Part shown: positions 10,896-29,637 of the stretch, one piece after another
How positions within the stretch are numbered: the stretch's first letter is position 1
Layout: the number at the start of each line of letters is the position of its first letter
Origin: Promethearchaeota archaeon
GTDB taxonomy: Archaea > Asgardarchaeota > Lokiarchaeia > Sigyniarchaeales > SOKP01
Reading direction: 5' to 3'
Length of the DNA stretch: 64,000 nt
NCBI GenBank assembly: GCA_048940645.1
Contig: JBHLOI010000005.1
Location: 1-64,000 of the forward strand
The notes under the pieces: model-generated
Told to the model about the DNA's origin: nothing
Seen by the model: the letters and a program-made list of their open reading frames with translations, nothing else
The model's database searches: none
Made by a program: the position numbers and the translations under genes

Positions 10896-10950
10896 TTTTT
10901 GTTAAGAAACGAAATTTATTCACTAATTGTAAAATGTTAAATAATAATTA

Positions 10951-11361
10951 TCATAATTCCTCAACCACGTGATAACCATTTTGTTTAAGAACTTCGATTC
11001 CATTTTCATTTTCATCTAGTCTGAATATTATTAAAGGCTGGTCATCAATTATACTCGTATAAAGATATTCAATATTTACATTATTTGAACCAAAGAGTTT
11101 AGCAATTTTATATAATGCTGCAATATTATCAGAAAGCCTAACAGCTACTACTTCAGTAACTGAATATAACAGTTCTTTTTCTTCTAAAATTTTAATACAT
11201 TCTTCAAACTGATCAACTAAAAGTAATAATAGACCATAATCTTCCGTTTCTGCCACTGTAAGAGATCTAATATAAATTTTATTATCCATTAATACCTCAA
11301 AAAATTCGGCAAGCTCTCCCGGTTTATTAGGAAGAAAAACTGAAATCTGATTTATCGACAT
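10951..11361 (-). CDS. Tandem ACT-domain protein
   Basis: QISVFLPNKPGEL...IRSLTVAETEDYG...VNIEYLY; this family is commonly found next to aryl-CoA ligase genes. Confidence 0.85.
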   Translation of the reverse strand: MSINQISVFLPNKPGELAEFFEVLMDNKIYIRSLTVAETEDYGLLLLLVDQFEECIKILEEKELLYSVTEVVAVRLSDNIAALYKIAKLFGSNNVNIEYLYTSIIDDQPLIIFRLDENENGIEVLKQNGYHVVEEL

Positions 11362-11605
11362 TATTTTGGAATTAGAAAATTATTATAATTAAAACATACA
11401 ACTTAATTAAATTAGAAATATAGATTGTTTAAAAATAATACTAAAATAATTCATATTTGATTTTAAAACGGTGTACTACTTAATTTTTTAAGCTTAGTTT
11501 TCTTCAAATTAATATATCGAAGTTAAATCTAAGGAAATTTTTAAGATCTAAATTCTCTTAATAAAATTGTGTTACATAATTAATAGTACGAAAATTGTGG
11601 TTTAA

Positions 11606-12334
11606 GTGATGAAATGGGAGTTTGAGTTCGATGAAAGGTTAAAATGGACAGCCGAATTGCGCGATAATTTATATAAGAAAGCAAATCTTGCTCAAAAGAA
11701 GAACTTATTAGAGGTTGGATGCGTTACTGGTGAACTACTTAAAGAAATTGGAGTCATGTACGACTTAAAATTGTATGGTATAGATAATGACGCTGTGAAA
11801 ATTGAATATGCAAGAGTAAACCTTGAAAAGAATATGATTGATGCAAAATTAATGGTGATGGACATATCAAATAATTCTTTTGAGGATGAGATGTTTGATG
11901 TTATAATTTCCTACTTTTCCTTCCTATGGATAAAGAATTTAAAAAAAGCTATATCAGAAATCCATAGAATTTTAACCAATAATGGTGTATTTTTGATTTT
12001 AGGAGAACCAGACTTTGGGGGATTAATTGAATACCCCGATACTAATCTAAAAAAAGAAATCATATATAATATCAAAAATCTAGGTGGAGATCCTGCAATA
12101 GGAAGAAAACTAAACCAATATTTCACAAACCAATTCAAAGTAATAGAGCATTTTTGTACTAGTCTCCCTTGGATTCCTAACGTAGATAAAATAACTTTAC
12201 ATAAAGAAATTGATTTTTATGAAGAAAATTTGAATCCAAAACAATTTGATATAAATTTAATTAGGACTAGTATTGATTTAGAAAAATTTTTCTTGTTTAT
12301 ACCCATTTTTAGTTATCATCTTAGGAAAATTTAA
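11606..12334 (+). CDS. Class I SAM-dependent methyltransferase
   Basis: LLEVGCVTG motif I, YGIDND, FEDEMFDVI, EIHRILTNNG. Confidence 0.8.
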   Translation: MMKWEFEFDERLKWTAELRDNLYKKANLAQKKNLLEVGCVTGELLKEIGVMYDLKLYGIDNDAVKIEYARVNLEKNMIDAKLMVMDISNNSFEDEMFDVIISYFSFLWIKNLKKAISEIHRILTNNGVFLILGEPDFGGLIEYPDTNLKKEIIYNIKNLGGDPAIGRKLNQYFTNQFKVIEHFCTSLPWIPNVDKITLHKEIDFYEENLNPKQFDINLIRTSIDLEKFFLFIPIFSYHLRKI

Positions 12335-12429
12335 AATTAAATATTAAATCTAAAGCTTTTTATAAGATTTAGAAGAAGAACCAAAAAACTAGTATCTAAT
12401 AACTATTTCATTTTTAAAAAACTATAAGG

Positions 12430-12834
12430 TTAATCTTCAGAATTGTGCTTCAATTTTTCAAATAACCTTTTATATTCTTCTATATATTTTTCATCGTTAG
12501 TTTCTTTTATTTTTTGCAAAAGTTCAACAGATTTAGTTAAAACTTCTGATCTTTTCCTAATTTTTTCCTTATATAAATCTTTTCTATATTGTGATTTTGC
12601 TAATTTCAATTCATTTTTTATTTTTTCAATAGAGCTTTCTATGTTCTTTTGAGAATTTATAACTGAATTAGTAAGTTGCTTTTTTCTTTGCTCTAATGTA
12701 ATACAATTTTCACAGATCAATTCTCCCGATTCTTTCCCTCCTTGTTTAATCATATAAGGATTCCCGCAACGAGAACATTTAACTAACTTAACAATGAGCT
12801 TATTTTCGTTGGAATCGGGCATGGACTGGAACAA
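12430..12834 (-). CDS. Hypothetical protein with zinc ribbon and coiled coil
   Basis: CSRC...CENC followed by a long K/E-rich heptad region. Confidence 0.7.
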   Translation of the reverse strand: MFQSMPDSNENKLIVKLVKCSRCGNPYMIKQGGKESGELICENCITLEQRKKQLTNSVINSQKNIESSIEKIKNELKLAKSQYRKDLYKEKIRKRSEVLTKSVELLQKIKETNDEKYIEEYKRLFEKLKHNSED

Positions 12835-15771: not shown

Positions 15772-16854
15772 ATGATTTTACTATCTACCGAAAGTTTTGC
15801 AGACGGACTTTCAGCTATGTTATGCCTTATTTTTGCTTGGATTCTAGGATTAGGAATTATCATTCACGCTAGAAGATTAAATGCCAAACTCCTTTCATAT
15901 ATGGGCTTAAATATATTTTTAGCAGGTTTTTTCTGGCTAGTAATTTGCTGTGACTTTTTAGCAGTGTTAATATCAGGTCGTAATCTAAATAATCCATATG
16001 GATGGATGGGAATAGTCCACATTATGTGGGCTCCGCTTGTGTTATTAATTTCCGTATATATTGGCGCTGAACTCATGGTTCCTAAAAAAAAGTGGTATTT
16101 CGTTTATTCTTTTCTAATTTTAAGCTTATTATTTGAATTTTTTATTCTTATTAATCCTTTAGGTACTTTTTATTTTGAATACCCGGATACACCTGGCGAA
16201 AGCTTAATTATTATTATGATTATGTCTAATACTCCTGCAAATCTTTTAACATATGCTTTTGAAATTTTTGGATTACTTTTTTGCGGATTTGGATATTTAA
16301 TAAAGAGTTTTCGATCAGTTGGATTAATAAAAAATAAATTTATATTATTATCGATAGGATATTTTCTTTTTATTGGATTTCCTATTGTAGCAGCATTGAC
16401 ATCTCGTTTTGGTTTTTTCATTCCTATAGTTTATTCTAGGATTGGAATGGTAAGCGGATTCTTCTTTTTTTATGCAGGTTTGAGAGAAACGCCCATCTCA
16501 AAAAAGAAAAAAGAGAAAAGGGAAAGGATCAAAAAGGATGTAAAAGTTGAAGAATCATTGTTTAGATTATTTGAAAGACCATATCATATTTCCGAAGAGG
16601 AAGTCATTTTTCATAAAGAAAAGAAAATTTGTCTTGTTTGTAAAGGAAAAGTCCTAAGAGTAAACTATATTTGCCCTAAATGCAATGCCCTTTATTGTAT
16701 TAATTGCTCAGAAGTATTAAGTAATCGGGAGAACATGTGTTGGGTATGTGATGAACCTTTTGATGAATCTAAACCTATATCTCCGTATAAAAGAAAGATC
16801 AAGAAAGATGTCGCAAAAATTTTGGATGTACATAAAGAACCTGAAATTTCATAG
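15772..16854 (+). CDS. About 7-TM membrane protein with C-terminal C4C4 RING-like zinc finger (candidate membrane E3 ligase)
   Basis: About seven hydrophobic helices, a basic linker, then C-x2-C-x10-C-x2-C-x4-C-x2-C-x10-C-x2-C (CLVC..CPKC..CINC..CWVC). Confidence 0.75.
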   Translation: MILLSTESFADGLSAMLCLIFAWILGLGIIIHARRLNAKLLSYMGLNIFLAGFFWLVICCDFLAVLISGRNLNNPYGWMGIVHIMWAPLVLLISVYIGAELMVPKKKWYFVYSFLILSLLFEFFILINPLGTFYFEYPDTPGESLIIIMIMSNTPANLLTYAFEIFGLLFCGFGYLIKSFRSVGLIKNKFILLSIGYFLFIGFPIVAALTSRFGFFIPIVYSRIGMVSGFFFFYAGLRETPISKKKKEKRERIKKDVKVEESLFRLFERPYHISEEEVIFHKEKKICLVCKGKVLRVNYICPKCNALYCINCSEVLSNRENMCWVCDEPFDESKPISPYKRKIKKDVAKILDVHKEPEIS

Positions 16855-16910: not shown

Positions 16911-17528
16911 TTAATATAAATATTCGAAGCAATCGAGATTCCCTCTAATTTGAGCAGCTATATCGTCTCTATCATCTTCAATTAATTCATCAATTGTAGT
17001 CTGATAATATTCAACCGCTTTAGCATACGCCGTATCATGAGAATCTCCTTGTGCGATTGAATGGTCAATTTGAGAATCACATTCAAAAAGAAGATGTCGA
17101 TGGTTCTCATCTGGATAGAGAAAATAATGAGAGTATCCAAAAAATGCTGTACAACCTTTATCTACAAAATCGTTTCCCAATGTATCAGCTGTAAAGCATG
17201 AGGTAAGGTGTATTACTTTATCCAAAACTTCCTCTTTTGAATAACCTTTTCCACGTAGAGGGCACTTTTTTTTAAAAATGTACTCACCCAGATGACCCAT
17301 AAAAGTAGATTTATTCCCATGCCCAGATCCTGTAATAAACTTGATGTCGGGATCTATAGCTATTTCTTCAACCTTTTCTCTTGTTGCGAGTTGTCCTTGT
17401 CTCATTTCAAGAGTTCTGGTAAACTGATTAATGTATGGATAAACTTTTATATTACGATAATCATAAATTATTCTAGTATCATTATCATAGTTAGAATCAA
17501 TTCCAAGGAATTTAATAGTTCCACTCAT
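16911..17528 (-). CDS. Stand-alone clan CD (caspase/gingipain/CHAT-like) cysteine peptidase
   Basis: Hydrophobic strand then HG (IKFITGSGHGN); hydrophobic strand then SC (KVIHLTSCFTA); followed by LGNDFVDKGCTAFFGY. Confidence 0.7.
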   Translation of the reverse strand: MSGTIKFLGIDSNYDNDTRIIYDYRNIKVYPYINQFTRTLEMRQGQLATREKVEEIAIDPDIKFITGSGHGNKSTFMGHLGEYIFKKKCPLRGKGYSKEEVLDKVIHLTSCFTADTLGNDFVDKGCTAFFGYSHYFLYPDENHRHLLFECDSQIDHSIAQGDSHDTAYAKAVEYYQTTIDELIEDDRDDIAAQIRGNLDCFEYLY

Positions 17529-17986
17529 AAGTCTAATTCACCTGCCTGTATTTTTCTTTTTGCTTTCTCTAAAACAAATTGGATCGTAAAAATTTCGATA
17601 TTAATTAAGCGCTTTCCTAATTTCGATTTCTTTTGTATTTCATCTATACCTCTGGCTTGTTCAATTTTTCCTATACCTGGAACAAAAACTTCGTATTCAG
17701 GTCTTACTTTAATTCTTTCTATTGCTATTTCTGATTTTATTTTTAAACTTAAGGTATCATAATCTATCTCCAAATTCTTTTCAAGAATATCTCTTACTGA
17801 TAATTTTTCATTTGCTTCTTCATCAATTCCACCAACCATGTCCAACTGAGCTTCTAGATTTTGTTTTGGTGTCTTTGTCTCAATTTTTTTAATGTTTTCT
17901 CTTATTTCTTTTCTTATTTTATCTTTATAGTCATCATCTAATCCAGGTAATTCTACACTTACTTTTTTCTTATAATAATAGGGCAT
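17525..17986 (-). CDS. Hypothetical protein translationally coupled to the caspase-like peptidase
   Basis: 153-aa charged protein; its stop overlaps the next start (ATGA, 4 bp). Confidence 0.7.
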   Translation of the reverse strand: MPYYYKKKVSVELPGLDDDYKDKIRKEIRENIKKIETKTPKQNLEAQLDMVGGIDEEANEKLSVRDILEKNLEIDYDTLSLKIKSEIAIERIKVRPEYEVFVPGIGKIEQARGIDEIQKKSKLGKRLINIEIFTIQFVLEKAKRKIQAGELDL

Positions 17987-18166: not shown

Positions 18167-18448
18167 ATGAGATTATCCGTGGAAGATTCCAGAACTGGTA
18201 AATTAATAAAACTTGACGTTAAAGAGCACCACCAAATTGAACGTATCATCGATATTATTATAAAGCATATGGGTATTATTAGTGTGGAGCAACGGTCATA
18301 TACATTGGTGCTTCATGACAAAGAATTACCAAATAGCATAACAATTGAAGAGGCTGTCCATAAATATGGATTAAAAGAAAACGATAAATTAGCATTATGG
18401 GCTAGAGTTATTGGTGGATATCTTTTTTTGTTTAATCATCGATTATGA
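18167..18448 (+). CDS. Ubiquitin-like protein (pro-form: GG followed by a 9-residue extension)
   Basis: Beta-grasp pattern MRLSVEDSRTGKLIKLDV...YTLVLHDKEL...YGLKENDKLALWARVIGG; adjacent to E2/E1/JAB. Confidence 0.85.
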   Translation: MRLSVEDSRTGKLIKLDVKEHHQIERIIDIIIKHMGIISVEQRSYTLVLHDKELPNSITIEEAVHKYGLKENDKLALWARVIGGYLFLFNHRL

Positions 18449-18992
18449 TTATATCATCATTATCTTCATCATTCAATTCTCTGGTATGGTATTGCTTTTT
18501 TAAGGTTTCAATATCTACTTTTTTAAAGAACTCTGCTGCTTCTAAACATATATTATAGTTAAGAGGATCGTCTGGATTTGGATCTTCTAACAATTTTTCT
18601 AATGCTTTCACAGTAGTCTCTAAATCAGACAGCCTTGACCATTGTTTTAAAATATTTAAACAAATATAACCTGTGCCTGGATTTACAGAATGGGGTAATT
18701 CAACAGGATGAATATTAGGATGAAAAATAGTAGAATACCAAGCAAAATCTATACCACCGGGGTAAGGGAAAGATCGATTTAATTTGAATAGGATGCGGTG
18801 AGTAGTTTTGGGGGATAAATTCTGAGGATCTTCTATTTCTCGAATGAAACCTAATGCTTTTAATACAATTAAGAACTCAACATTGTTTTCTTGCCAAATT
18901 ATCGAATCTTTTTCAATAATCTTGAGTTTTTCTAGACTTTTAATCTCATTATTTATTCGATCCTTCCAGATTTCAAGCGGTAATTCAGGCAT
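18432..18992 (-). CDS. Ubiquitin-conjugating enzyme E2
   Basis: FPYP, IFHPNI (HPN motif), GYICLNILKQW (catalytic Cys), LLEDPNPDDPLN...AA. Confidence 0.92.
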   Translation of the reverse strand: MPELPLEIWKDRINNEIKSLEKLKIIEKDSIIWQENNVEFLIVLKALGFIREIEDPQNLSPKTTHRILFKLNRSFPYPGGIDFAWYSTIFHPNIHPVELPHSVNPGTGYICLNILKQWSRLSDLETTVKALEKLLEDPNPDDPLNYNICLEAAEFFKKVDIETLKKQYHTRELNDEDNDDIIIIDD

Positions 18993-19038: not shown

Positions 19039-19920
19039 TTATTTTGATTTTTTATATGAGCATGTCCAACAATCAGGATCTTTTATTTTTTCAATAATAT
19101 TAAATTTATTTGTAAGGCCATTATATATTAATTGTTTCCCAATTAATGGTGAACCAATTTCATTGTCCCAACTTTTTTTCTCTTTAAAATAATCAATACC
19201 AAGTATAAATTTAATAACTTGTTGAGATTGAATCCCTCCAATAATTGAAGTTGTAGTAATGATAGTGGCTATTTTTCTTGTTGTTTCACCATCTTTAGAA
19301 TCAATTTCTTGCCCCGTACAGGAAAATCTCTTCCACATTAAATCTAAATCTGTGCCAGTAATTCCACATTGGAGGCAAGCAGCTTCACTTACTTCAGAAT
19401 AGACTGCTTGGATAGTTCCAAAGTGACCATCAATCCCCGAGTCAATAAAGGGGGTATTATAGTAGTAAGCATAATTGTTTGCCTCAATTCGGGCCTCAAT
19501 ATTATCCAAGCAAGAGCAGATAACATCACATTGTCTATAAAGATTCTTATCTATCTTATTCAATTCTTTTTTTATGGCTACAATCTCAACATCCGGATTT
19601 AAGATCCGAGAAGCTTCTTTAATGATATCAACTTTGTATTCCTTTTTTTCTGCAGTTTTTACATTAAAAAAAACACAACGATTTAAATTAGAAGCTTCTA
19701 TAAAGTCATAATCAATTAAGTAAATTTTACCTATCCCTGCTAAAACTAGATTTTTTACAAGTTCATTTCCTGTAGCTCCAGCACCAATCACCATTATCTT
19801 AGCATTATAGATCTTATCTTGATCCCATCCCTTAATTCGTTTCTGGCGATCATACTTATCTGAATCAATTGAATCTTGCCCTATGATCTTAATATCTTGT
19901 TCTTCCTTTTTATTATTCAT
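19039..19920 (-). CDS. Ubiquitin-activating enzyme E1 (ThiF/MoeB family)
   Basis: YDRQ, VIGAGATGNE, DYDFIEASNLNR, CLDNIEAR, CLQC and CWTC Zn sites, putative catalytic Cys in RFSCTG. Confidence 0.92.
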   Translation of the reverse strand: MNNKKEEQDIKIIGQDSIDSDKYDRQKRIKGWDQDKIYNAKIMVIGAGATGNELVKNLVLAGIGKIYLIDYDFIEASNLNRCVFFNVKTAEKKEYKVDIIKEASRILNPDVEIVAIKKELNKIDKNLYRQCDVICSCLDNIEARIEANNYAYYYNTPFIDSGIDGHFGTIQAVYSEVSEAACLQCGITGTDLDLMWKRFSCTGQEIDSKDGETTRKIATIITTTSIIGGIQSQQVIKFILGIDYFKEKKSWDNEIGSPLIGKQLIYNGLTNKFNIIEKIKDPDCWTCSYKKSK

Positions 19921-19952: not shown

Positions 19953-20444
19953 TTAATTTTTAGATATAATTGCATTACTAATAGTTTTATATTTTTTTTT
20001 GGAAGCATTATCTAATGTGTAAAAGTCATAAGTGTCTTTGATAGGATCTATAACTAATGCGACTTGAAAATTTTCGGGAAAAAAGTGTTGTTGAGTCTTC
20101 AAATCAGTTGGAGATAGAAAACAACCTAAATTGGGATGAGAATGCCACCAACCTACAACCCATAAATTCTTGTTTTTATTATTTTTTTTTAATTTTTGAA
20201 ATTCCTTATCGTATTTTCCGGCGGTTCCTTCAATTTGAGCAAATGATACCTTATGACTATAGAATGTTTCTTCAATGAATATTTTATCTTCTATAATAAT
20301 ATAGATTTGTTCTTTCCATTTACATATCAATCCAATTAAATAACCAAATATTTCATTTTCATAATTTTTGCACAAATCTTTAATCCCATTTAAAACATTT
20401 TCATAGATATACACTGGGAACACATAATCCTTATTAATAGTCAT
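19953..20444 (-). CDS. JAB/MPN+ (JAMM) metalloprotease, Rpn11/CSN5-like deubiquitinase
   Basis: EIFGYLIG and VVGWWHSHPNLGCFLSPTD (E...HxH-x10-D), VALVIDP. Confidence 0.92.
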   Translation of the reverse strand: MTINKDYVFPVYIYENVLNGIKDLCKNYENEIFGYLIGLICKWKEQIYIIIEDKIFIEETFYSHKVSFAQIEGTAGKYDKEFQKLKKNNKNKNLWVVGWWHSHPNLGCFLSPTDLKTQQHFFPENFQVALVIDPIKDTYDFYTLDNASKKKYKTISNAIISKN

Positions 20445-20467: not shown

Positions 20468-21352
20468 CTAACCATCAATATTATCTATAATTGAAATCGT
20501 TAACATTTTTTTAATAATCTTTAAAATTTTTCCTTTAGAAGCATCTTCCACTGCAGAAAAGCTAAAAGTTTTAAGACCAAACATTTCTTCTATCTGTTTT
20601 GAATCAATTGCAATGGCTTCTTTATCTTGGAAATTTGCTAGCATGAAAAAATGTTTATTAACTTTATTCTTTAATAAAGAGAATAGTCTTTGAGTTCGTC
20701 CTAAATTTGTAGCAGCAGAATTTGTAATAAGACAGATGATATCTGCTGAATTTAATATATCCTTATATAAATCTGAATAATTAATTAGATTATTTAGATT
20801 TACAGCTCTTATTATACACTCTTTTATTCCACTTAATCCTGAGAGCTTGATCTGTTTAAAAAGTATTTCATTCATATTATCATCTAATTCTATAATTGTT
20901 TCTGTTGGGAGTAAATTAATCATTGTTGTCTTTCCAACTCCTTTCTCTCCCGTAAATATTATATTTGGCGGAATGTAAATATTTTCCTCTATAAAGTCAT
21001 CGAAGTCATTAAAGACACTCACAAGACCAGTCCAAGTTTCTAAATAAGGACGGTATCTCTTAATAAACTCCGTCTTCATTAATTTCAAATTTTTTTTTGC
21101 ACTTTCTTCTAAATCATCTTTATCAATAGCAATAACAAAAATACATTTAAATTCATGAGAGTATGAATATACAAATTTAAAGTTCTTAAAGATTAATGAC
21201 TCAATTTTGCCGCCTTTAATTTCCCTTGCAAAATCACTAACAGCTGTAATATACCCGCTAATTATTTCGTCCCTTTTATCCAACTTGTCAAAAAAGTCTT
21301 TGGTATAGCAAAGAATGCCTCCAGGTCCTATGATAAAGATTTTTGAGATCAA
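20468..21352 (-). CDS. Longin-domain plus small GTPase-like fusion protein
   Basis: Longin-like N-terminus (IFIIGPGGILCY...IISGYITAVSDFAREI...FNDFDDFIE); P-loop GEKGVGKTT, G4-like ANFQD, G5-like FSA; no DxxG G3 motif. Confidence 0.8.
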   Translation of the reverse strand: MISKIFIIGPGGILCYTKDFFDKLDKRDEIISGYITAVSDFAREIKGGKIESLIFKNFKFVYSYSHEFKCIFVIAIDKDDLEESAKKNLKLMKTEFIKRYRPYLETWTGLVSVFNDFDDFIEENIYIPPNIIFTGEKGVGKTTMINLLPTETIIELDDNMNEILFKQIKLSGLSGIKECIIRAVNLNNLINYSDLYKDILNSADIICLITNSAATNLGRTQRLFSLLKNKVNKHFFMLANFQDKEAIAIDSKQIEEMFGLKTFSFSAVEDASKGKILKIIKKMLTISIIDNIDG

Positions 21353-21738: not shown

Positions 21739-21838
21739 AAAATGTTTTAAACTGAAACATCTATTATTAATTATTCTTAAAGCTAAGAATTTTAAAATCA
21801 GAAAACCAATATTGTTTTAATTTAATATTAGTAAATAG
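21739..21838 (+). promoter_or_regulatory. Conserved upstream/promoter region, copy 1
   Basis: AAAATGTTTTAAACTG-AAC-TCTATTATTAATTATTCTTA-AGCTAAGAA...AAAACCAATA, closely matched at 25703-25800; contains TTTTAAA TATA-like box. Confidence 0.7.
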
Positions 21839-24800
21839 TTGAGGATGGTAGGAATCACTCAAGGTGAATTACTAAGTAAAGCAGAAGCAGAAAAAAATAA
21901 TTATAATTGGGAAGAAGCAGCAGATTTATATGAGCAAGTTGCTAAAGAAGAGTTAAATCAAAATAGGTTAGAATATGCTGCCAAGTTTTATGATAAGCTT
22001 GGTAATATATGCATTCGAGCTGTTTTAGCATCGAACACTAAAGAAGATTATTTATTTTGGAATGAAAAATCGGTCAAAGCTTTTCTTAAGGCGGAGGATC
22101 TTTTTAACCGGATTGATATTAACCCCCTAAGTATGGAATGTAAAGCCAAAGCTCTTAATGCTATGAGTTATGTGATTACTTCAGTTGAAGAAGCACGAAA
22201 AAATTTAAAAAAATCAGTTGATATTTTTTTAGAACTTAAAGAAAAATATTTAAAAGCGAATGATAAGAAAAACTGTGTAAGATTATCAATCCTGACGATA
22301 GAATCCATAAATTCTTTCATGTTCCTATGTAAAGATCCTTCTGAATTAGACTTTTATAACCAGATGGCTTGTAATTTAATAGAAAAGGCTTGGATACATT
22401 TAAAAGAAAATGATACAATCAAAATTAGAGAAAGATTATTGTGGGGTGAAAATATGGTAATTAATTTTAATCGGTGGGCGGAACTTACTTATGGAGATGA
22501 AAAGCAAAAGGAAATCCTAAAGAGATATTTAAAAAGATGTGAAGAAACATTGCATTTAGCTGAAAATTGCGATGATTATGATATTCTTGGAGGTATTTAT
22601 GGTGCATTTGGTTTTCAAAATTGTATATTTGGAGGACTATTAGTTGAAGAACAGAAGGAGCGAGTAAGACTTGCTGAAAAAGGATTTGAGTTATTAGAAA
22701 AAAGTATAACATTCTATAGAAAATCAAGAAATGTTCTTGGAGCTATAACTTGTCGTTATGGTTTAGATTATCAAGCTGCTATTTTTGGCAGATATGAATA
22801 TTTACAGAAAAGAATTCTAAATGATGTGCATGAAGTTCAAAAATTAGATAAAATCTTCGATAATCAATATACTGGGCTTTATTGTTTCATGGATTTTATA
22901 CCTATAAGTTATTATAACTTATTTACAGGTAGAAGTTTTTTAAAGGCGGATACAAGGAAATCATATGCAAAAATAGGGATTCAATACACCAATGAAACTT
23001 TAAAGAGACTCGCATTTGGACCTTATATAATCTTTGCATATCAGATTTTAACTCTTTTATATTCAGAGTTGGTCACTCTTGCCATAGAAGGTGATCCCCG
23101 AGAAAAATATATTCAAAAGATGTTAGATTACGCAAAAGCAGCAGAAAATATCGCTAAAGACTATAAAGGAGGAGCTGTTAGAGCGGGAGGCTTAACTTCC
23201 ATTTATAGAGCATATAAGACAATGGCAGATATTACTAAAGGTAAAAAAGAAAAAAAATTAAATCTATTAACTGCAATAGAGGCTGCAAAGAAAAATGTTA
23301 AATATTCAATAGAATCTTATAGACTATATATAACCTCTCAAATGCGTTTAGGGCAGCTTTATGAGGAATTAGGAATTCTAACAACTGAAGAAAAACCCTT
23401 AATGGAAGCAAGAGAGCTATTCCTCCGTATAATTGAAGATAGTTCGGAAAAAGGTTATTATTATTATACAGCTGCTTGTTATGAATTTATTGCTCGTTTA
23501 GAAGATCGTCTTGGAAATCACATGACTTCTGCAGAATACTATGAAAAAGCGTGGGAGGCTCATGATAAGTCATTAATAGCAATTGAATTTAAACCATTAA
23601 AAGACAGGGTTAATGAAAAGATTGAATATGCTAAAGCATGGAATTTAATTGAGAAAGGTAAGGCATATCATAAAAGAGAACAGCATTTAAATGCCAAAGA
23701 ATGTTATAGAGAAGCATCTGAGATCTTAAAAACACTACCTAGTTTTAATTATGAAGCAGTTTATTATGGAGCCTGGATAGCTTTAGAAGAAGCTGAGGAT
23801 CTTAGTAAGCAGGAAAAACATGATCAAGCTATAAGGAGCTATGAGAAAACTAGAGAACATTTTGAGAATGCTGTCTTTAGTATTAGATTTATTAGGAAAA
23901 ATGTTAGAAGGTCAAAAGAATTAAAAAAACTTGAGAAAGTAGCTAAAATAAGGATGAATCATTGTTCTGCCAGAATAAATCTTGATAAGGCAAGAATTTT
24001 AGGAAAAAAGGGAGATCACCTTGCCGCTGCTGAAAAATTTAACAATGCAGCATCTCAATTCAGAGATATTTGTGTATTATATAAAATTAAAAGAGAGCGA
24101 GCAGAATTAGAGGCAATATATTATCTCTGTAGAGCTTGGGAAAGCATGGAATTAGCTGAAAACTACGAGGATCCTGAAAAATTTGCAGAAGCGGCAGACT
24201 TATTCGCAGAAGCTAGCGATTTCTTTACGGAAAGTAAATTGAAATTCCTAGCTCAGGGTAATTCAAATTTTTGTTTAGCTCTAGAAGAAGGATGTAAATT
24301 TGATCAGTCCCATGATATGAAAATTAAAACAATATTGTATCCCAACGTTAAATTAATTCTTAGAAAAGCAGCAGATTTATATGAAAAAGGTGGTTTTAAA
24401 AATGGTGCAGACTGGGCACTTGCAACATCAATATATTTCGATGCAGCATGGTATTTAATTCAAGCCGATGATGAATTAGATATAAATAAAAAACAGGAGT
24501 TTTTAAGTTTTGGATCAAATTATTTGAAGTCAGCAGCAGAACTCTTTCGTAAAGCTGGATATCAAGACAAAGAACGAGAAATTTTAGACAGATTAAAAAG
24601 AGTCATTAAAGAGGAAAAGATACTTTTTTCCGCCTTAAACACAATTAATAAACCCTCTGTTTCAGGAAGTATTGAAGGGATAGTTACACCATCATGTCCG
24701 ATAGAAACAAGCCAATCACCACGGATAGGTGAAATTCAACAATACTCTGAAGAAGTGAGTAAATTCTTAGAAATAGATAGTAAAATAAAAAAATATAAAA

Positions 24801-25666
24801 TAGAATATAGGGATTTGTTAAAAGATTATCCAAAATCCCCAAGGAACCAATGTAGAGTTGGTGTTGCTCAAATCGGTATTTCCAATTCTGGTGCTATAAT
24901 GAATGAGTTTTATGATGAAAAACCTAAGGGGCTTCTAACACTTAAAGAAGAGAAAGTTAATGATGTTGATTCAAAAGTTAAAGAAATGATTGAAAAAGCC
25001 CATCAAGCAGGTGTAGACATATTACTTTTTCCAGAAATGGCAGTAGATCTCAAATATAGGCAATTTTTAGAGCATATATCAAATCTTGCTAAAGCATATG
25101 GAATGTATATTATCCCTGGATCATACCACGACGTTGAAACAAAAAGCAATATTAGCTTAGTCATAGGACCTGAAGGAATTCTCTGGCGACAAGAAAAACA
25201 TATCCCTGCAATAATTAGTCTAGAGAGAGGTAGATTTAAAGAAGGAATAGATACAACTACTTTACCGCATAAAACATTAGTGTGTAATACAGAATATGGA
25301 AGAATAGCTATTGCAACATGTCGGGATTTTCTTGATATGGATTTAAGGGTTGAGTTAAAAAATTTCGAGCCCCCAGTGGATATTGTTTTAAACCCAGCTT
25401 TTACGCCTGTTACAGCTGATTTCAAGGCAGTTCATTTTGATGCGCGGAGATCCATTTATGCTTACACTTTTTTTGCAAACATTGCTGATTTTGGGAACTC
25501 TCTCATATATACGCCGGAAAAAGAGCGTGTTGAAAGAAATCTCCCTCCAAAACAGGAAGGTTTAATCTATAAAGATGTAGATCTTTTTAGACTTCGTTCA
25601 GAACGGAAGAAATGGGAAAAAGAACAAAAAAAAGAAGTTCAATTTATTCAAAGTACTAGATCATAA
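21839..25666 (+). CDS. Large TPR/SNAP-like helical repeat protein with C-terminal nitrilase (carbon-nitrogen hydrolase) domain, copy 1
   Basis: About 930 aa of helical repeats (AADLYEQ, AAEKF, AADLF), then E-K-C triad LLFPEM / QEKHIP / IATCRDF. Confidence 0.85.
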   Translation: MRMVGITQGELLSKAEAEKNNYNWEEAADLYEQVAKEELNQNRLEYAAKFYDKLGNICIRAVLASNTKEDYLFWNEKSVKAFLKAEDLFNRIDINPLSMECKAKALNAMSYVITSVEEARKNLKKSVDIFLELKEKYLKANDKKNCVRLSILTIESINSFMFLCKDPSELDFYNQMACNLIEKAWIHLKENDTIKIRERLLWGENMVINFNRWAELTYGDEKQKEILKRYLKRCEETLHLAENCDDYDILGGIYGAFGFQNCIFGGLLVEEQKERVRLAEKGFELLEKSITFYRKSRNVLGAITCRYGLDYQAAIFGRYEYLQKRILNDVHEVQKLDKIFDNQYTGLYCFMDFIPISYYNLFTGRSFLKADTRKSYAKIGIQYTNETLKRLAFGPYIIFAYQILTLLYSELVTLAIEGDPREKYIQKMLDYAKAAENIAKDYKGGAVRAGGLTSIYRAYKTMADITKGKKEKKLNLLTAIEAAKKNVKYSIESYRLYITSQMRLGQLYEELGILTTEEKPLMEARELFLRIIEDSSEKGYYYYTAACYEFIARLEDRLGNHMTSAEYYEKAWEAHDKSLIAIEFKPLKDRVNEKIEYAKAWNLIEKGKAYHKREQHLNAKECYREASEILKTLPSFNYEAVYYGAWIALEEAEDLSKQEKHDQAIRSYEKTREHFENAVFSIRFIRKNVRRSKELKKLEKVAKIRMNHCSARINLDKARILGKKGDHLAAAEKFNNAASQFRDICVLYKIKRERAELEAIYYLCRAWESMELAENYEDPEKFAEAADLFAEASDFFTESKLKFLAQGNSNFCLALEEGCKFDQSHDMKIKTILYPNVKLILRKAADLYEKGGFKNGADWALATSIYFDAAWYLIQADDELDINKKQEFLSFGSNYLKSAAELFRKAGYQDKEREILDRLKRVIKEEKILFSALNTINKPSVSGSIEGIVTPSCPIETSQSPRIGEIQQYSEEVSKFLEIDSKIKKYKIEYRDLLKDYPKSPRNQCRVGVAQIGISNSGAIMNEFYDEKPKGLLTLKEEKVNDVDSKVKEMIEKAHQAGVDILLFPEMAVDLKYRQFLEHISNLAKAYGMYIIPGSYHDVETKSNISLVIGPEGILWRQEKHIPAIISLERGRFKEGIDTTTLPHKTLVCNTEYGRIAIATCRDFLDMDLRVELKNFEPPVDIVLNPAFTPVTADFKAVHFDARRSIYAYTFFANIADFGNSLIYTPEKERVERNLPPKQEGLIYKDVDLFRLRSERKKWEKEQKKEVQFIQSTRS

Positions 25667-25702
25667 CTTTTTTCCAAATCCAATTTTATGATTATTCTAT
25701 GT

Positions 25703-25800
25703 AAAATGTTTTAAACTGGAACGTCTATTATTAATTATTCTTAGAGCTAAGAAATTCAAAATCGAAAAACCAATACAGCTAATTTAGTATTAATAAAAAG
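25703..25800 (+). promoter_or_regulatory. Conserved upstream/promoter region, copy 2
   Basis: Closely matches 21739-21838. Confidence 0.7.
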
Positions 25801-28800
25801 TTGAGGATGGTAAGAATCACTCAAAGTGAATTATTAAGTAAAGCAAAAGCAGAGGAAAAGAATTATAATTGGCTTAAGGCTGCAACCTTATATGAACAAG
25901 TTGCAAATGCATTTTTAGATGAACAATCATTGGAAAAAACCGCGAAATATTGCAAGAAATTGGGTCATGCTTATGTAAAGGCATCGCATACTGCTGACAC
26001 ATCAGAAGGATTTAGAAATATAAACAACCTTGCAATTAAAGCATATAAGAATGCTTTAAATTTTTTTAACCAGATTAAAAAGAATCCAGAGGATTTAGAA
26101 TGTGAAGCAGAAATATTCAGCATCAAAGGAGTACTTGCTAATTCTGCTTTGGAAGGAAAGATAAACTTTAAAAAATCTTATGAGTTATTTGTTAAATCAA
26201 GTGAGATCTATAGAAATAATGACGATCAAGAAAGTACAGCAAGAACTTTAAGTAGTGCTACAGAATCTCTTTTTCGACTAGTATTTTGTAGTCCTGAGCA
26301 AGAGGAAATCGAAAATTATATTCAAAAAGGTTTAAAAATAGGTCAAGAAGCTTGGGTTCTTGCTAAAAAAGGTAATTATTATGATATACTTGCTGAATTA
26401 TTATATTCTATAGGAAAGTTGACTTTTCTTTATTGTTTTGTCATACCTTTTAAATGGACCGATGATTTTAGAAAGTATTTTAATAAATACAAATCAATAG
26501 GAGATATTAGTTTAAAGCTTATTCAAGAATGTACCGCTCCAGATGTAATAGCAAAAGTCAATTTATTTACAGGAATAATCTATGCCAGTTTCGCTATTCA
26601 AATTATTGAAGACTCAATCAAACAGAAAGAATATGGAGATAAGGGCATTGTGTTGATGGAAATTGGACTAAATTACATGAAAAAAGTCAAAGATAAAAGA
26701 GATATAATATATGGTATATTTTTTTTAAACTATTTAGCAACTTCTTTAAGAAGATTTAATTATGTACAAAAGAGAATATGGCAAGATGTGCATACTCTTT
26801 TAGAATTGGGGGAAGTGTATAAAGGATTATTAATTGAGCCTTATTTCCTTAGAACCATTTTCCCTGCTTTTTATTATACGAATCTTTCTCAAAGAAGTTT
26901 TATTAAACCTGATCAACAAAAAAAGTATGCTAAGTTAGCTATTCAATACTCCAAAGAATCTTTAGAAGTTTTTTCTTTCTTACCTATGTTAACTTGGTCA
27001 TACCAAGCATTAACATGGTCTTATTCAAAATTAGCATATCTTACAAATGTACAGGATGAGCAAAATAAATATATAAATAAAATGACTAGTTATGCTAAAA
27101 AGGCAGAGAATCTAGCTAAAAATTATAAAGGAGGGTTTTCTGTAGCAGCAGGATACTCATCTTTATTTAAAGCCTATAAGACTCAGGCAGATTTATCAAA
27201 AAAAGCTGTAAAAAAAATAGAATTGCTTAAATTATCAATTGAAGCTCATAAGAATTACCTTGGAAATGAAGTTGAATCTCCTACAGGAATAATTGCAGCG
27301 CAAATACGCTTAGGATTATTATACCAAGAACTCGGCATTCTAACTCAGCAATCTGAAACATTTGAACGAGCTAGAGATGCATTTCTATTGGTTGAACAGG
27401 AAAGTAAGAGGAGGAAATTCTTTTATTATACTGCCACTGCTTATGAATATCTTGCTCATATAGAAGACCGAATTGGAAATTATTCTGACTCTGCAAATTA
27501 TTATGAAAAAGCACGAGAAATTTATCAGAATTTACTTGATACTGTAGAACAAAAACCTCTAAGAAAGAATATTATAGAAAAAGTTGAATATACAACAGCC
27601 TGGAATTTAGTAGAGAAGGCTAAGTCATTCCATAGGAATGAAGAACATCTAATGGCAAAAGAAAGTTATCAAAAAGCAAGTGAAATCCAAAATAATATTC
27701 CAAAGTTCAATTTTGAATCCCACTACTATGAAGCATGGGCATTATTGGAAGAAGCGGAACATTTCAGCAAGCAAGAAAAGCAAAGGGAGACAATTAATAA
27801 GTATAAAGAAAGTCAAAATGCCTTTGAAAACACTATAGATATTCTAGTTGAGAAATCAAAATCTTCGAAATTAAGAGAAGTTAAAGAGAGAATAGAGAAA
27901 CTTGAGAAAGTTGCTAAATTAAGAATAAATTATTGCTCTGCAAAGATAAATCTGGAGGAAGGTAGGATTTTGGGAAAGCGGGGCGAGCACTTTAAAGCTT
28001 CTGAACGTTTTGGAAAAGCTGCTTCTCAATTTAGGAATGTATGTACGCGATATAAAATAGAAAAAGAAAGAAAAGATCTTGAAGCAATATATTATCTTTG
28101 TAGAGCTTGGGAAAATATGGAGCTTGCTGAAAATTATTTGGAGCCAGAAAGATATGCAGAGGCTGCAGATCTTTTCTTGAAGGCAAGTCAACTCTTTCAA
28201 GATAGCAAAATGAAATTATTGGCATCAGGAAATTCTGCTTTCTGTAATGCTTTAAAATTAGGATGTAGATTTGATGAGTCTTATGACTCAGAAACTAAAG
28301 GGAAGTTGTATCCTAACATTAAAGCAATGCTAAGAGGAGCTGCAAATTCTTATGAGAAGGGAGGTTTTAAAAATGGTGCAGATTGGGCTATAGGTACTTC
28401 TACTTATTTTGATGGTGTATGGCATGTAATTAAAGCAGATGAAGAGCTGGATCTAGAAGAGAAAGAAAGACTTCTCAAATTAGGAGAACAAATTCTAAAA
28501 TCAACAGCAGATCTTTTCGGTAAAGCAGGTTATGAAGATAAACAAAATGAAGTATTGAATCGTATTGAATTGATTAAAAAAGAAGAAAAGATTTTATTTT
28601 CTGCTTTAAATTCGATTAAAAAGCCTGAAATCTCTGGAAGTACAACTGGTATTATTGCTCCAGCTTGCCCTATAGAAATTAGTCAATCTCCTAGATTAAG
28701 TGAAGTACATCAAATCACAGAAAATATAATAAGAAGATATGTAGAAGAAAAAACTGAACAGAAAAAATATGAAATTACATATACAGATTTTCTTAAACAA

Positions 28801-29637
28801 GACTTAAAAACCCAAAAAAGTCAATTTAGAATAGGAATTGCTCAAATTGGCTTATCAAAAACCAGTGATATTATAACTGATTTTTTTGAAGAGAAATCCA
28901 ATGGTTTGTTGGGATTTAAAAAGGAGAAAATAAAACCCGTGATAAGTAAAGTTAAAGAAATGGTTGATAATGCTAGTAGCCATAAAATTGATGTTCTAAT
29001 TTTTCCAGAAATGGCTATAGATTTAAATTATAAAGAACTTTTAGAAGAGATATCAAACCTCGCCAAGAAATATAACATGTATATCATTCCAGGTTCTTAT
29101 CACAATCAAGAAACAAAACAAAATATAAGTATGGTTATCTCTCCTGAAAGAATTCTATGGATACAAGAAAAACATATTCCTGCTATAATTCACTTTGAAG
29201 ATAAAAAGTTTAAAGAAGCTATAGAAACCAGCTCAAGACCTCGAAAGATATTAGTATGCAATACTGAATACGGAAGAATTGCCATCACTATATGTCGAGA
29301 CTTCCTTGATATGGATTTAAGAGTTGAATTAAAAAATTTTGAACCTCCTGTTGACATTGTTATAAATCCTGCATTTACCCCCGTCACAGCTGATTTTAAA
29401 GCGGCTCATTTTGATGCACGTAGATCGATTTATGCTTATTGTTTTTTTGCTAATGTAGCTGAATTTGGTGAATCCCTCATCTACACTCCTGAAAAAGATC
29501 GTACTGAAAGAAGCATTCCAGCAAAAGAAGAAGGTCTGATATATAAAGATGTCAATTTATTCAAATTACGATCAGAACGTAAAAAATGGGAAAAAGAGCA
29601 AAAAAAGGACGTGCAATTTATCCAGAGCACGAGATAA
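25801..29637 (+). CDS. Large TPR/SNAP-like helical repeat protein with C-terminal nitrilase domain, copy 2
   Basis: Full-length paralogue of the preceding gene; LIFPEM / QEKHIP / ITICRDF; CRDFLDMDLRVELKNFEPPVDIV identical between the copies. Confidence 0.85.
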   Translation: MRMVRITQSELLSKAKAEEKNYNWLKAATLYEQVANAFLDEQSLEKTAKYCKKLGHAYVKASHTADTSEGFRNINNLAIKAYKNALNFFNQIKKNPEDLECEAEIFSIKGVLANSALEGKINFKKSYELFVKSSEIYRNNDDQESTARTLSSATESLFRLVFCSPEQEEIENYIQKGLKIGQEAWVLAKKGNYYDILAELLYSIGKLTFLYCFVIPFKWTDDFRKYFNKYKSIGDISLKLIQECTAPDVIAKVNLFTGIIYASFAIQIIEDSIKQKEYGDKGIVLMEIGLNYMKKVKDKRDIIYGIFFLNYLATSLRRFNYVQKRIWQDVHTLLELGEVYKGLLIEPYFLRTIFPAFYYTNLSQRSFIKPDQQKKYAKLAIQYSKESLEVFSFLPMLTWSYQALTWSYSKLAYLTNVQDEQNKYINKMTSYAKKAENLAKNYKGGFSVAAGYSSLFKAYKTQADLSKKAVKKIELLKLSIEAHKNYLGNEVESPTGIIAAQIRLGLLYQELGILTQQSETFERARDAFLLVEQESKRRKFFYYTATAYEYLAHIEDRIGNYSDSANYYEKAREIYQNLLDTVEQKPLRKNIIEKVEYTTAWNLVEKAKSFHRNEEHLMAKESYQKASEIQNNIPKFNFESHYYEAWALLEEAEHFSKQEKQRETINKYKESQNAFENTIDILVEKSKSSKLREVKERIEKLEKVAKLRINYCSAKINLEEGRILGKRGEHFKASERFGKAASQFRNVCTRYKIEKERKDLEAIYYLCRAWENMELAENYLEPERYAEAADLFLKASQLFQDSKMKLLASGNSAFCNALKLGCRFDESYDSETKGKLYPNIKAMLRGAANSYEKGGFKNGADWAIGTSTYFDGVWHVIKADEELDLEEKERLLKLGEQILKSTADLFGKAGYEDKQNEVLNRIELIKKEEKILFSALNSIKKPEISGSTTGIIAPACPIEISQSPRLSEVHQITENIIRRYVEEKTEQKKYEITYTDFLKQDLKTQKSQFRIGIAQIGLSKTSDIITDFFEEKSNGLLGFKKEKIKPVISKVKEMVDNASSHKIDVLIFPEMAIDLNYKELLEEISNLAKKYNMYIIPGSYHNQETKQNISMVISPERILWIQEKHIPAIIHFEDKKFKEAIETSSRPRKILVCNTEYGRIAITICRDFLDMDLRVELKNFEPPVDIVINPAFTPVTADFKAAHFDARRSIYAYCFFANVAEFGESLIYTPEKDRTERSIPAKEEGLIYKDVNLFKLRSERKKWEKEQKKDVQFIQSTR

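Follow-up and report, generated by a model that had tools for sequence, protein, structure and literature searches.

What use could an archaeon have for two giant proteins, encoded in tandem beside a set of ubiquitin-pathway genes, that each join some 980 residues of helical repeats to a carbon-nitrogen hydrolase? The question is raised by a stretch of 64,000 nucleotides with a G+C content of ~30% (hereafter the window), which corresponds to positions 1-64,000 of the forward strand of contig JBHLOI010000005.1 (assembly GCA_048940645.1) from Promethearchaeota archaeon, a Loki-type Asgard. An examination of the letters alone (the sequence-only reading) had described the two proteins as paralogues of ~1275 amino acids with an intact E-K-C triad, and had compared them with sensor-effector proteins in which diversifying tetratricopeptide repeats (TPR) gate an effector linked to the adjacent ubiquitin system. 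The analysis presented here leads us to prefer, with moderate confidence, an interpretation in which these TPR-nitrilases belong, as polymorphic single-chain sensor-effectors, to a conflict or stress system that is tied to an accessory ubiquitin cascade. In public records the family bears automatically assigned names ('carbon-nitrogen hydrolase family protein', 'predicted amidohydrolase/TPR repeat protein', 'TIR domain-containing protein'), and literature searches for nitrilase together with Asgard, ubiquitin, TPR, TIR or defence returned no description of the family or of its ubiquitin link. The word nitrilase is absent from two Asgard defence surveys and from the conflict-system survey PMC7159879.

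Both genes are intact, and their open reading frames (ORFs), Pfam matches and catalytic residues bear out the two paralogues that had been described. Pfam CN_hydrolase (PF00795) matches residues ~1042-1258 with 29.9 bits in copy 1 and 38.4 bits in copy 2, both above the gathering cut-off of 23.2 bits. The model of residues 985-1275, computed with 30 homologues, has a predicted local distance difference test score (pLDDT) of 91.6 and presents a complete alpha-beta-beta-alpha sandwich of the nitrilase superfamily, which superposes on mouse Nit2 (2w1v) with a VIA Z of 25.4 and a root mean square deviation of 3.4 over 236 residues (Foldseek E 1e-14), and on ~50 further entries from all branches of the superfamily with Z 23-25 at 12-25% identity. 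Of the catalytic positions, the E-K-H-I-P Lys and the F-K-E-G Glu are conserved in all of 30 diverse members compared, and the F-P-E Glu and the C-R-D-F-L-D-x-D-L-R Cys each in 29 of them. Strong conservation extends beyond the active site over the entire C-terminal 120 residues plus the tail, where the extreme C-terminus F-I-Q-S-T-R is nearly invariant across these 30 members, a feature that is suggestive regarding a homo-oligomer requirement. As judged from the model, the domain is a complete CN-hydrolase of the nitrilase superfamily with an intact Glu-Lys-Glu-Cys centre.

With regard to the kind of nitrilase, the best profile match of the domain is RTasNitrilase of PADLOC (E 9e-11 for copy 1 and 2e-14 for copy 2), with 39.4 and 51.4 bits against the 29.9 and 38.4 bits of the general Pfam model; NCBIfam gave sub-threshold matches only, and the CARF-nitrilase model of PADLOC was not reached by the window proteins at E 0.01. 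When the nitrilase domain was searched exhaustively with phmmer against 1.84 billion representatives, 49 clusters fell below E 1e-30, followed by a gap and then by weak relatives, 72 of which (≥ 200 amino acids) were scored as outside relatives. CARF-nitrilase was matched by 49 of the 72, RTasNitrilase by 47, RT_UG5-nitrilase by 42 and Drt1a by 27, while just 25 reached Pfam CN_hydrolase at 1e-5, and the domains that accompany them are LRR, HEAT, TPR and nSTAND3. Because most of the nearest outside relatives match nitrilase models of defence-associated reverse transcriptases (DRT) or of CARF proteins, we place the domain, by similarity, beside defence-effector nitrilases and outside the recognisable metabolic amidases, so that the comparison of defence and metabolic clades proposed by the sequence-only reading comes out, on PADLOC scores and outside relatives, in favour of defence models. 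The family profile recovered archaeal nitrilases (E 3e-4) and, weakly, residues 1157-1225 of DRT1 (9yfd; E 0.01), whereas in a single-sequence search of the Protein Data Bank (PDB) with this domain even the best hits, solved metabolic enzymes included, stayed at E 0.18-0.44. The same search with the last 100 residues yielded cyanide dihydratases only, at E ~1, and did not recover the DRT1 tail alignment. No reverse transcriptase or CARF domain was found in the window proteins with Pfam or PADLOC, and none is evident in the surveyed flanks.

The N-terminal ~980 residues are predicted to be a giant TPR-like alpha-solenoid. The model of residues 3-984 (19 homologues in the alignment, pLDDT 86) shows 37 helices of ~20 residues each, arranged in one continuous solenoid, with a weak match to Pfam TPR_12 near residues 506-576. 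The best fold matches of the 982-residue scaffold are Ctr9, Ski3, IFT-A subunits, TTC7 and separase (Foldseek E 5e-10 to 1e-5), and a CRL2 substrate receptor is also among its nearest structural matches; TM-scores against giant TPR platforms are 0.2-0.38 at 9-13% identity, low values that are expected because such superhelices are flexible. What is shared with Ctr9, Ski3, IFT-A, TTC7 and the N-terminal region of separase is a long paired-helix superhelix, a likeness of fold class only, which does not indicate common descent or function. Between solenoid and hydrolase both copies carry a Cys/Pro-rich linker with the motif P-x-C-P-I-E-x-S-Q-S-P-R (C953, C956), which reads P-S-C-P-I-E-T-S-Q-S-P-R in gene 1 (Cys953 codon at 24695-24697) and persists in scaffold proteins of another family at 30% identity as well as in the TIR, longin and RING variants described below. 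The C-terminal third of the solenoid including this linker, here called scafC, is the sole scaffold portion retained in fusions with a longin-GTPase and in GTPase + scafC proteins of 338-409 amino acids. Neither window protein contains a P-loop NTPase (NACHT, NB-ARC, AAA_16) according to Pfam and PADLOC, nor a Pfam match to CHAT or peptidase C14.

The same scaffold was found with other C-terminal domains. In three genomes of the organism's own genus the nitrilase is replaced by TIR (Pfam TIR_2, E 3e-15 and 1e-14), one of them having the scaffold-TIR gene directly upstream of a nitrilase copy, and the wide search returned at least nine scaffold-TIR clusters of ~1117 amino acids. Three further clusters of ~1303 amino acids (P0246, P0250, P0265) have Metallophos (PF00149, precomputed Pfam) in the nitrilase place. 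One array consists of scaffold-nitrilase, scaffold-nitrilase and scaffold-RING genes, the last of which (1070 amino acids, L070:8981-12193) ends in a RING finger of the same C4C4 type as the tail of the seven-transmembrane (7-TM) protein of the window. A ~150-residue longin-like C-terminus follows the scaffold in eleven copies in one genome (another family of the same class), and this domain corresponds to the longin-like N-terminus of the longin-GTPase of the window (hhalign 96%, E 3e-9). The domain comparisons thus show the output position of the scaffold as a swap site for nitrilase, TIR, metallophosphoesterase, RING and longin; the search for the same scaffold with other effectors, which the sequence-only reading had recommended, was therefore productive, and the swappable C-terminal modules on a shared scaffold support the TPR-CHAT-like sensor-effector architecture that it had suggested.

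The nitrilase clade itself is nearly always C-terminal and stands behind TPR_12/MalT repeats, Ras plus kinase, RING plus kinase, longin-GTPase, beta-helix or alpha/beta-hydrolases. In P0004, for instance, a RING-like N-terminus that is 56% identical to the tail of the 7-TM protein is followed by Pkinase and nitrilase. The beta-helix partners are NosD-type proteins of 1600-1800 amino acids, P0003 has the nitrilase in an internal position between an AAA_16 piece and an alpha/beta-hydrolase, the composition of P0038 and similar proteins suggests high-G+C bacteria, and the clade is also borne by P0010, P0028 and P0031. Just downstream of the TPR-nitrilase gene, loci L117, L122 and L138 encode (~10200-12490, +) a membrane protein of ~740 amino acids whose C-terminal longin-like domain is related to the TPR-longin tail.

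Over their full length the two copies are 50% identical (BLASTP), and this identity is unevenly distributed. In windows of 100 residues it amounts to 48% at residues 1-100, 16-29% at 50-300, 34-52% at 300-650 and 58-67% at 690-900; the linker region follows with 45-50%, and the nitrilase core reaches 78-82%. Mean column identity in 62 full-length members is 0.25 at residues 151-250, ~0.65 at 700-950 and 0.90 at 1151-1200, the variable N-terminal two-thirds ranging family-wide between 0.25 and 0.58. The gradient found in both comparisons differs from the uniform divergence that would have spoken against the sequence-only reading, and the high similarity of the later repeats, linker and nitrilase noted there was confirmed. 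Its description of the first ~450 residues as diverged holds for the strength of the N-terminal divergence and not for its shape, which is graded, with a trough at residues 50-350 and a fairly conserved stretch in the first ~45 residues.

The synonymous divergence (dS) between genes 1 and 2 is saturated, which makes the ratio of nonsynonymous to synonymous divergence (dN/dS, omega) between the paralogues uninformative, and each gene has its own orthologue (87-95% identity) in two relatives; by these comparisons the copies are old paralogues. Between orthologues, the N-terminal half has omega values of 0.16-0.67 (0.23-0.54 in the variable part of gene 1), and those of the C-terminal half lie at 0.06-0.23 in gene 1, while a single linker window of gene 2 reaches 0.64. 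The N-terminal part is under relaxed constraint. Positive selection on it was dropped as an explanation, the maximum of omega being 0.67, and of the 'diversifying' repeats proposed earlier there remains a variable N-terminal half in front of a conserved output, without the positive selection (omega 0.06-0.67 between orthologues). Residues 1-300 of gene 2 are 67% identical to the orthologue in genome G030, compared with 94-96% for the rest, and both dS and dN are raised there. Since the two rise jointly in N-terminal blocks, the mosaic suggests recombination with unsampled alleles; no donor of the divergent block of gene 2 was found among the family sequences compared.

The second line of evidence is the neighbourhood. 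Divergently from gene 1 runs a unit that begins with a longin-GTPase gene and continues with genes for a JAB protease, an E1 and an E2, close to genes for a ubiquitin-like protein and the RING-tailed 7-TM protein. Within the genus, 14 of 42 genomes were found to have an orthologue of the E1, and the corresponding loci were sorted into five forms, (a) to (e). Form (a) is the arrangement of the window, where the array runs divergently and counts one to three genes that encode scaffold-nitrilase or scaffold-TIR proteins. In form (b) a gene of 870-882 amino acids, which fuses longin-GTPase, scaffold residues ~695-975 and nitrilase, occupies the place of the longin-GTPase directly upstream of JAB-E1-E2. 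Form (c) has a GTPase-TIR gene of ~300 amino acids beside the ubiquitin gene (L059:11720-12676:-, G026:C50; L056:7231-8121:-, G014:C186), in operons without TPR-nitrilase genes, and form (d) a gene of 338 amino acids for GTPase plus scaffold fragment upstream of JAB-E1-E2; in the window's own genome (G000:C11), a 409-amino-acid GTPase + scafC gene without effector follows a second RING-tailed membrane protein (L004: 3-464 +, 937-2166 +). Form (e), in genome G064, keeps the same flanks (longin-GTPase, UbiA) without an array. Here 62 nucleotides of a nitrilase 3' end, encoding ...F-I-Q-S-T-R-stop, lie at 8936-8997 of L057 (G064:C154) and align to window positions 29574-29637 and 25600-25661; because this remnant persists between longin-GTPase and UbiA, the array was deleted in G064 and not inserted elsewhere.

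Among 36 genomes, both E1 and family occur in 10, E1 only in 2, the family only in 6 and neither in 18 (Fisher p 0.001, a significance that is overstated because the genomes are kin). The adjacency is not a matter of chance, since the first gene of the operon is fused to scafC and nitrilase in several gene orders. We regard the coupling of the TPR-nitrilases to the longin-GTPase and ubiquitin genes as established at the genomic level, and it is at this level, through repeated neighbourhood and gene fusions, that the link to the adjacent ubiquitin system suspected earlier is borne out. No ubiquitin gene lies near a second full-length lineage, which includes a third copy in the genome at G000:C68, so that independent action of the proteins is presumably possible. 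A 97-amino-acid 'partner' ORF in 38 loci and, in the window, the ORF at 25003-25425 (-) were rejected, both being antisense shadows of the strongly conserved coding strand of the nitrilase.

A species-level scan with one genome per species yielded 269 loci encoding the nitrilase clade, and the best 80 of these come almost all from metagenome-assembled genomes (MAGs) labelled Promethearchaeota/Lokiarchaeota, Hermod-, Hod-, Thor- or Odinarchaeota. TPR-nitrilase genes with 68-71% identity were also seen under the names of a Nanopelagicaceae bacterium (L091), Pacearchaeota (L098) and Bathyarchaeia (L114), and these are probably mis-binned Asgard contigs. As far as the searches reach, the nitrilase clade is small and almost Asgard-only. 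Within the genus, 17 of 36 genomes have the family, with arrays of 2-3 copies; it is patchy, multi-copy and tandem-arrayed, and it was lost by deletion in a close relative.

The coordinates of all features are compiled in Table 1. Each gene opens with TTG and has an ATG two codons on, and since the public copy of the gene 1 protein begins at this ATG (MVGITQ, 1273 amino acids), the true starts are probably the ATG codons at 21845 (gene 1) and 25807 (gene 2, 1276 amino acids). Upstream of both genes lies a 73-nucleotide element, the second copy of which stands in the spacer; a separate start region for each gene is thereby implied. Its two copies have remained 90% identical although the neighbouring coding DNA is saturated, and it is present solely upstream of array members of the window-locus lineage. 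No signal of RNA structure was detected in it (fold z -0.67), and a scan for sigma-70 promoters and terminators stayed at background level, the sigma-70 model being ill-suited to an archaeon; the element is probably a promoter or leader. Between the 7-TM and ubiquitin-like genes, genes of 205 (16911-17528) and 153 amino acids occupy positions 16911-17986 (-) and have no match in Pfam (caspase included), NCBIfam or PADLOC. In relatives the pair accompanies neither the family nor the operon, save for a weak homologue of the 153-amino-acid protein (35% identity, L063), and cleavage of the linker by it was set aside because it does not travel with the family.

Table 1. Features of the TPR-nitrilase locus, in positions of the window (aa, amino acids; nt, nucleotides)
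Feature	Position	Strand	Basis or remark
TPR-solenoid-nitrilase gene 1	21839..25666	+	ORF, 1275 aa from TTG; Pfam CN_hydrolase and TPR_12; orthologues 89% identical in two relatives
Gene 1, variable N-terminal two-thirds of solenoid (residues ~3-690), proposed recognition part	21845..23908	+	Low inter-copy identity, higher omega, all-helical model
Gene 1, scafC, conserved C-terminal third of solenoid (residues ~691-984) incl. linker	23909..24790	+	58-67% inter-copy identity
Gene 1, CN-hydrolase domain	24791..25663	+	Model pLDDT 91.6, invariant residues, PADLOC RTasNitrilase
Gene 1, predicted catalytic codons E1066, K1120, E1135, C1161	25034-25036, 25196-25198, 25241-25243, 25319-25321	+	
Gene 1, C-terminal F-I-Q-S-T-R	from 25643	+	Invariant
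TPR-solenoid-nitrilase gene 2	25801..29637	+	ORF, 1278 aa from TTG; orthologues 95% and 87% identical in two relatives
Gene 2, nitrilase domain	28762-29634	+	
Gene 2, predicted catalytic codons E1070, K1124, E1139, C1165	29008-29010, 29170-29172, 29215-29217, 29293-29295	+	
73-nt upstream element before gene 1	21739..21811	+	Non-coding, 90% identical to 25703-25775
73-nt upstream element before gene 2	25703..25775	+	Inside 134-nt spacer
Longin-like + small-GTPase-like protein	20468..21352	-	Divergent from gene 1; first gene of JAB-E1-E2 unit; P-loop GExGVGKTT and NFQD kept
JAB/MPN deubiquitinase-type protease	19953..20444	-	Pfam JAB E 2e-10
E1-like ThiF-family activating enzyme	19039..19920	-	Pfam ThiF E 7e-46; single copy of its type in the genome
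E2 (UQ_con) conjugating enzyme	18432..18992	-	Pfam UQ_con E 1e-10
Ubiquitin-like protein (...VIGG + short tail)	18167..18448	+	Translation; convergent; accompanies E2/E1/JAB in all relatives examined
7-TM protein with C-terminal RING-type finger	15772..16854	+	Co-occurrence by BLAST

Nitrilases form dimers and spirals. In the anti-phage protein DRT1 the nitrilase domain is the effector, which needs tetramerisation and for which conserved C-terminal residues form a cap in trans (PMC13275509). Its authors describe nitrilase effectors as uncommon in defence systems and the substrate of DRT1 as unknown, and report that nitrilase alternates with phosphohydrolase in class 3 DRTs (PMC13275509). In DRT1 (PDB 9yfd) and the class 3 UG-Abi reverse transcriptases, as in other nitrilases associated with reverse transcriptases, a large multidomain chain carries the CN-hydrolase as output at its C-terminus, just as the window proteins do. 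The conserved extreme C-terminus, a trans-acting lid in DRT1, recurs in the window proteins, and the alternation in class 3 parallels that of nitrilase and metallophosphoesterase on the Asgard scaffold. Unlike DRT1, the window proteins come without reverse transcriptase or DNA adduct and have instead a 980-residue TPR solenoid as partner, an archaeal host and a ubiquitin link, and sequence identity between DRT nitrilases and the window domain is ~25-30%.

Other systems share parts of this design. The CARF-nitrilase of type III CRISPR (PADLOC CARF_m7--CARF_nitrilase) likewise fuses a sensor to a nitrilase output, but CARF is absent from the window proteins, and a survey of the ORFs at 10000-42000 showed no CRISPR genes. 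N-terminal helical repeats with a swappable effector are found in TPR-CHAT/Csx29 of type III-E CRISPR, in TPR-TIR and in TPR/STAND proteins (Kaur et al. 2020, PMC7159879), and the TIR alternative, the multiple copies and the patchy occurrence are common to the window family and such TPR-effector conflict proteins; unlike TPR-CHAT and STAND proteins, the family has a nitrilase effector and no STAND NTPase or CHAT protease, on a scaffold that forms a family of its own, confined to Asgard-labelled MAGs. STAND/NLR-like sensors hold a central NTPase within the chain, whereas here the GTPase is a separate gene, or is fused in other members. As to the operon, CBASS type II (Cap2/Cap3), Bil and the ubiquitin operons of Caldiarchaeum type also combine E1, E2, JAB and ubiquitin-like genes in a compact locus beside effector-type proteins. 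In contrast to CBASS type II, the Asgard locus has a separate eukaryote-like E1 and E2 with a RING partner and no CD-NTase match among the locus proteins scanned, and in contrast to both CBASS and Bil its effectors are TPR, longin or GTPase fusions with nitrilase or TIR.

Taking these likenesses together with the architecture, the preferred interpretation would work as follows. The variable solenoid may bind a trigger, e.g., a viral, other foreign or stress-related protein, and this binding would alter the assembly state of the protein, after which the nitrilase domain would become active, the repeats possibly gating the amidase. By analogy with other nitrilases and DRT1, activity would require oligomerisation, and each protomer would probably have its active site completed by the invariant C-terminal tail of a neighbour. 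Once active, the enzyme could hydrolyse a C-N bond of an essential small molecule or protein, leading to cell arrest or signalling, while cooperation with the longin-GTPase and the E1/E2/JAB/ubiquitin/7-TM-RING genes might regulate the effector or be regulated by it.

Several results count against this interpretation. Apart from generic JAB and E1 hits of PADLOC, no NTPase, nucleic-acid sensor or other known defence gene was found in the proteins or their flanks, and the flanking genes are metabolic (UbiA, Fe-S proteins, hydrolases), with no defence island. The structure cannot assign the nitrilase to a branch, because all branches score alike in the comparison given above. Between orthologues omega exceeded 1 in no 100-codon window, so that no arms race is demonstrated. 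Neighbour clustering over 78 loci gave no conserved neighbour for the stand-alone lineage, and about half of the family loci are partnerless. The relatives are all from one phylum and many from one genus, and neighbourhood counts are hence not independent. Lastly, the ubiquitin link could equally mean a role in proteostasis.

The most serious alternative, which we nevertheless consider rather unlikely, takes up this last point and sees in the proteins substrate adaptors of the ubiquitin pathway: the solenoid would recruit targets, and the nitrilase would be a protein amidase in the service of regulated proteolysis or signalling, which deamidates N-terminal or side-chain Asn/Gln, as in Nta1-like degron formation, or cleaves an isopeptide or amide bond, while the RING version would ubiquitylate. 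Yeast Nta1, a nitrilase-superfamily enzyme of the N-degron pathway, offers a precedent, and the scaffold-RING paralogue strengthens this alternative because it shares an array with scaffold-nitrilase genes. The RING-kinase-nitrilase and longin-GTPase-nitrilase fusions, the tight adjacency to E1/E2/JAB/Ub/7-TM-RING in several gene arrangements and the nature of the nearest fold matches of the scaffold, which are eukaryotic protein-binding TPR platforms including a CRL2 substrate receptor, agree with it as well. It is weakened by the TIR and metallophosphoesterase variants, since neither domain at the output position fits protein modification, and by the sequence neighbours of the nitrilase, which match DRT and CARF models and reveal no affinity to Nta1; the latter is absent among the listed sequence and fold matches, although the nitrilase branches score alike, so that this absence excludes nothing. 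Moreover, numerous members of the family have no ubiquitin gene anywhere near them, and G064 has retained its ubiquitin operon after deletion of the array.

An ordinary small-molecule amidase or nitrilase that sits on a TPR platform so as to be localised or to form complexes, beside ubiquitin genes by chance within the genus, is in our opinion improbable. The public annotation ('carbon-nitrogen hydrolase family protein' or 'predicted amidohydrolase') would suit it, as would the best structural matches, which are metabolic (Nit2, beta-ureidopropionase, carbamoylases), and the metabolic flanks (UbiA, Fe-S proteins, hydrolases). However, identity to metabolic enzymes is no higher than 12-25%, with Z equal across branches, and with the single domain sequence no solved metabolic enzyme scored better than E 0.4; the fusions of the first operon gene in several gene orders are incompatible with chance synteny, and effector swaps with TIR, RING and Metallophos in a patchy, multi-copy and deletable family are not expected of such an enzyme. 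Slimmer still is the chance that the domain is mainly an oligomerisation or structural module of a non-enzymatic scaffold, a role that would accord with the intra-tetramer contacts of DRT1, which are all made by its nitrilase domains (PMC13275509), and with the conservation beyond the active site over the C-terminal 120 residues and tail, but that would not need the (near-)invariant Glu, Lys, Glu and Cys of the 30 members (Cys lost in one) and does not suit the TIR and Metallophos alternatives, which are enzymes. What confidence we withhold from both the conflict sensor and the ubiquitin adaptor is left to a metabolic, a structural or some unknown role.

Asgard ubiquitin genes are usually taken as forerunners of eukaryotic protein tagging. 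If the tie between the TPR-nitrilases and their ubiquitin neighbours is functional, it would give archaeal ubiquitylation a concrete context, namely conflict or stress signalling, which bears on whether ubiquitin-regulated immunity predates eukaryotes. The family would also be a second, independent setting for nitrilase effectors, and its soluble 290-residue domain with many natural partners could aid the finding of substrates, that of DRT1 included. A wider possibility, which we put forward tentatively, is that Loki-type Asgards have an undescribed immune-like network, in which interchangeable sensors (TPR solenoid, longin, GTPase) and outputs (nitrilase, TIR, metallophosphoesterase, RING) are wired to a eukaryote-type E1-E2-RING-JAB ubiquitin cascade. 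If so, the network would be an archaeal precedent for ubiquitin-controlled innate-immune or cell-death signalling, and the nitrilase a new class of cell-arresting or signal-generating effector.

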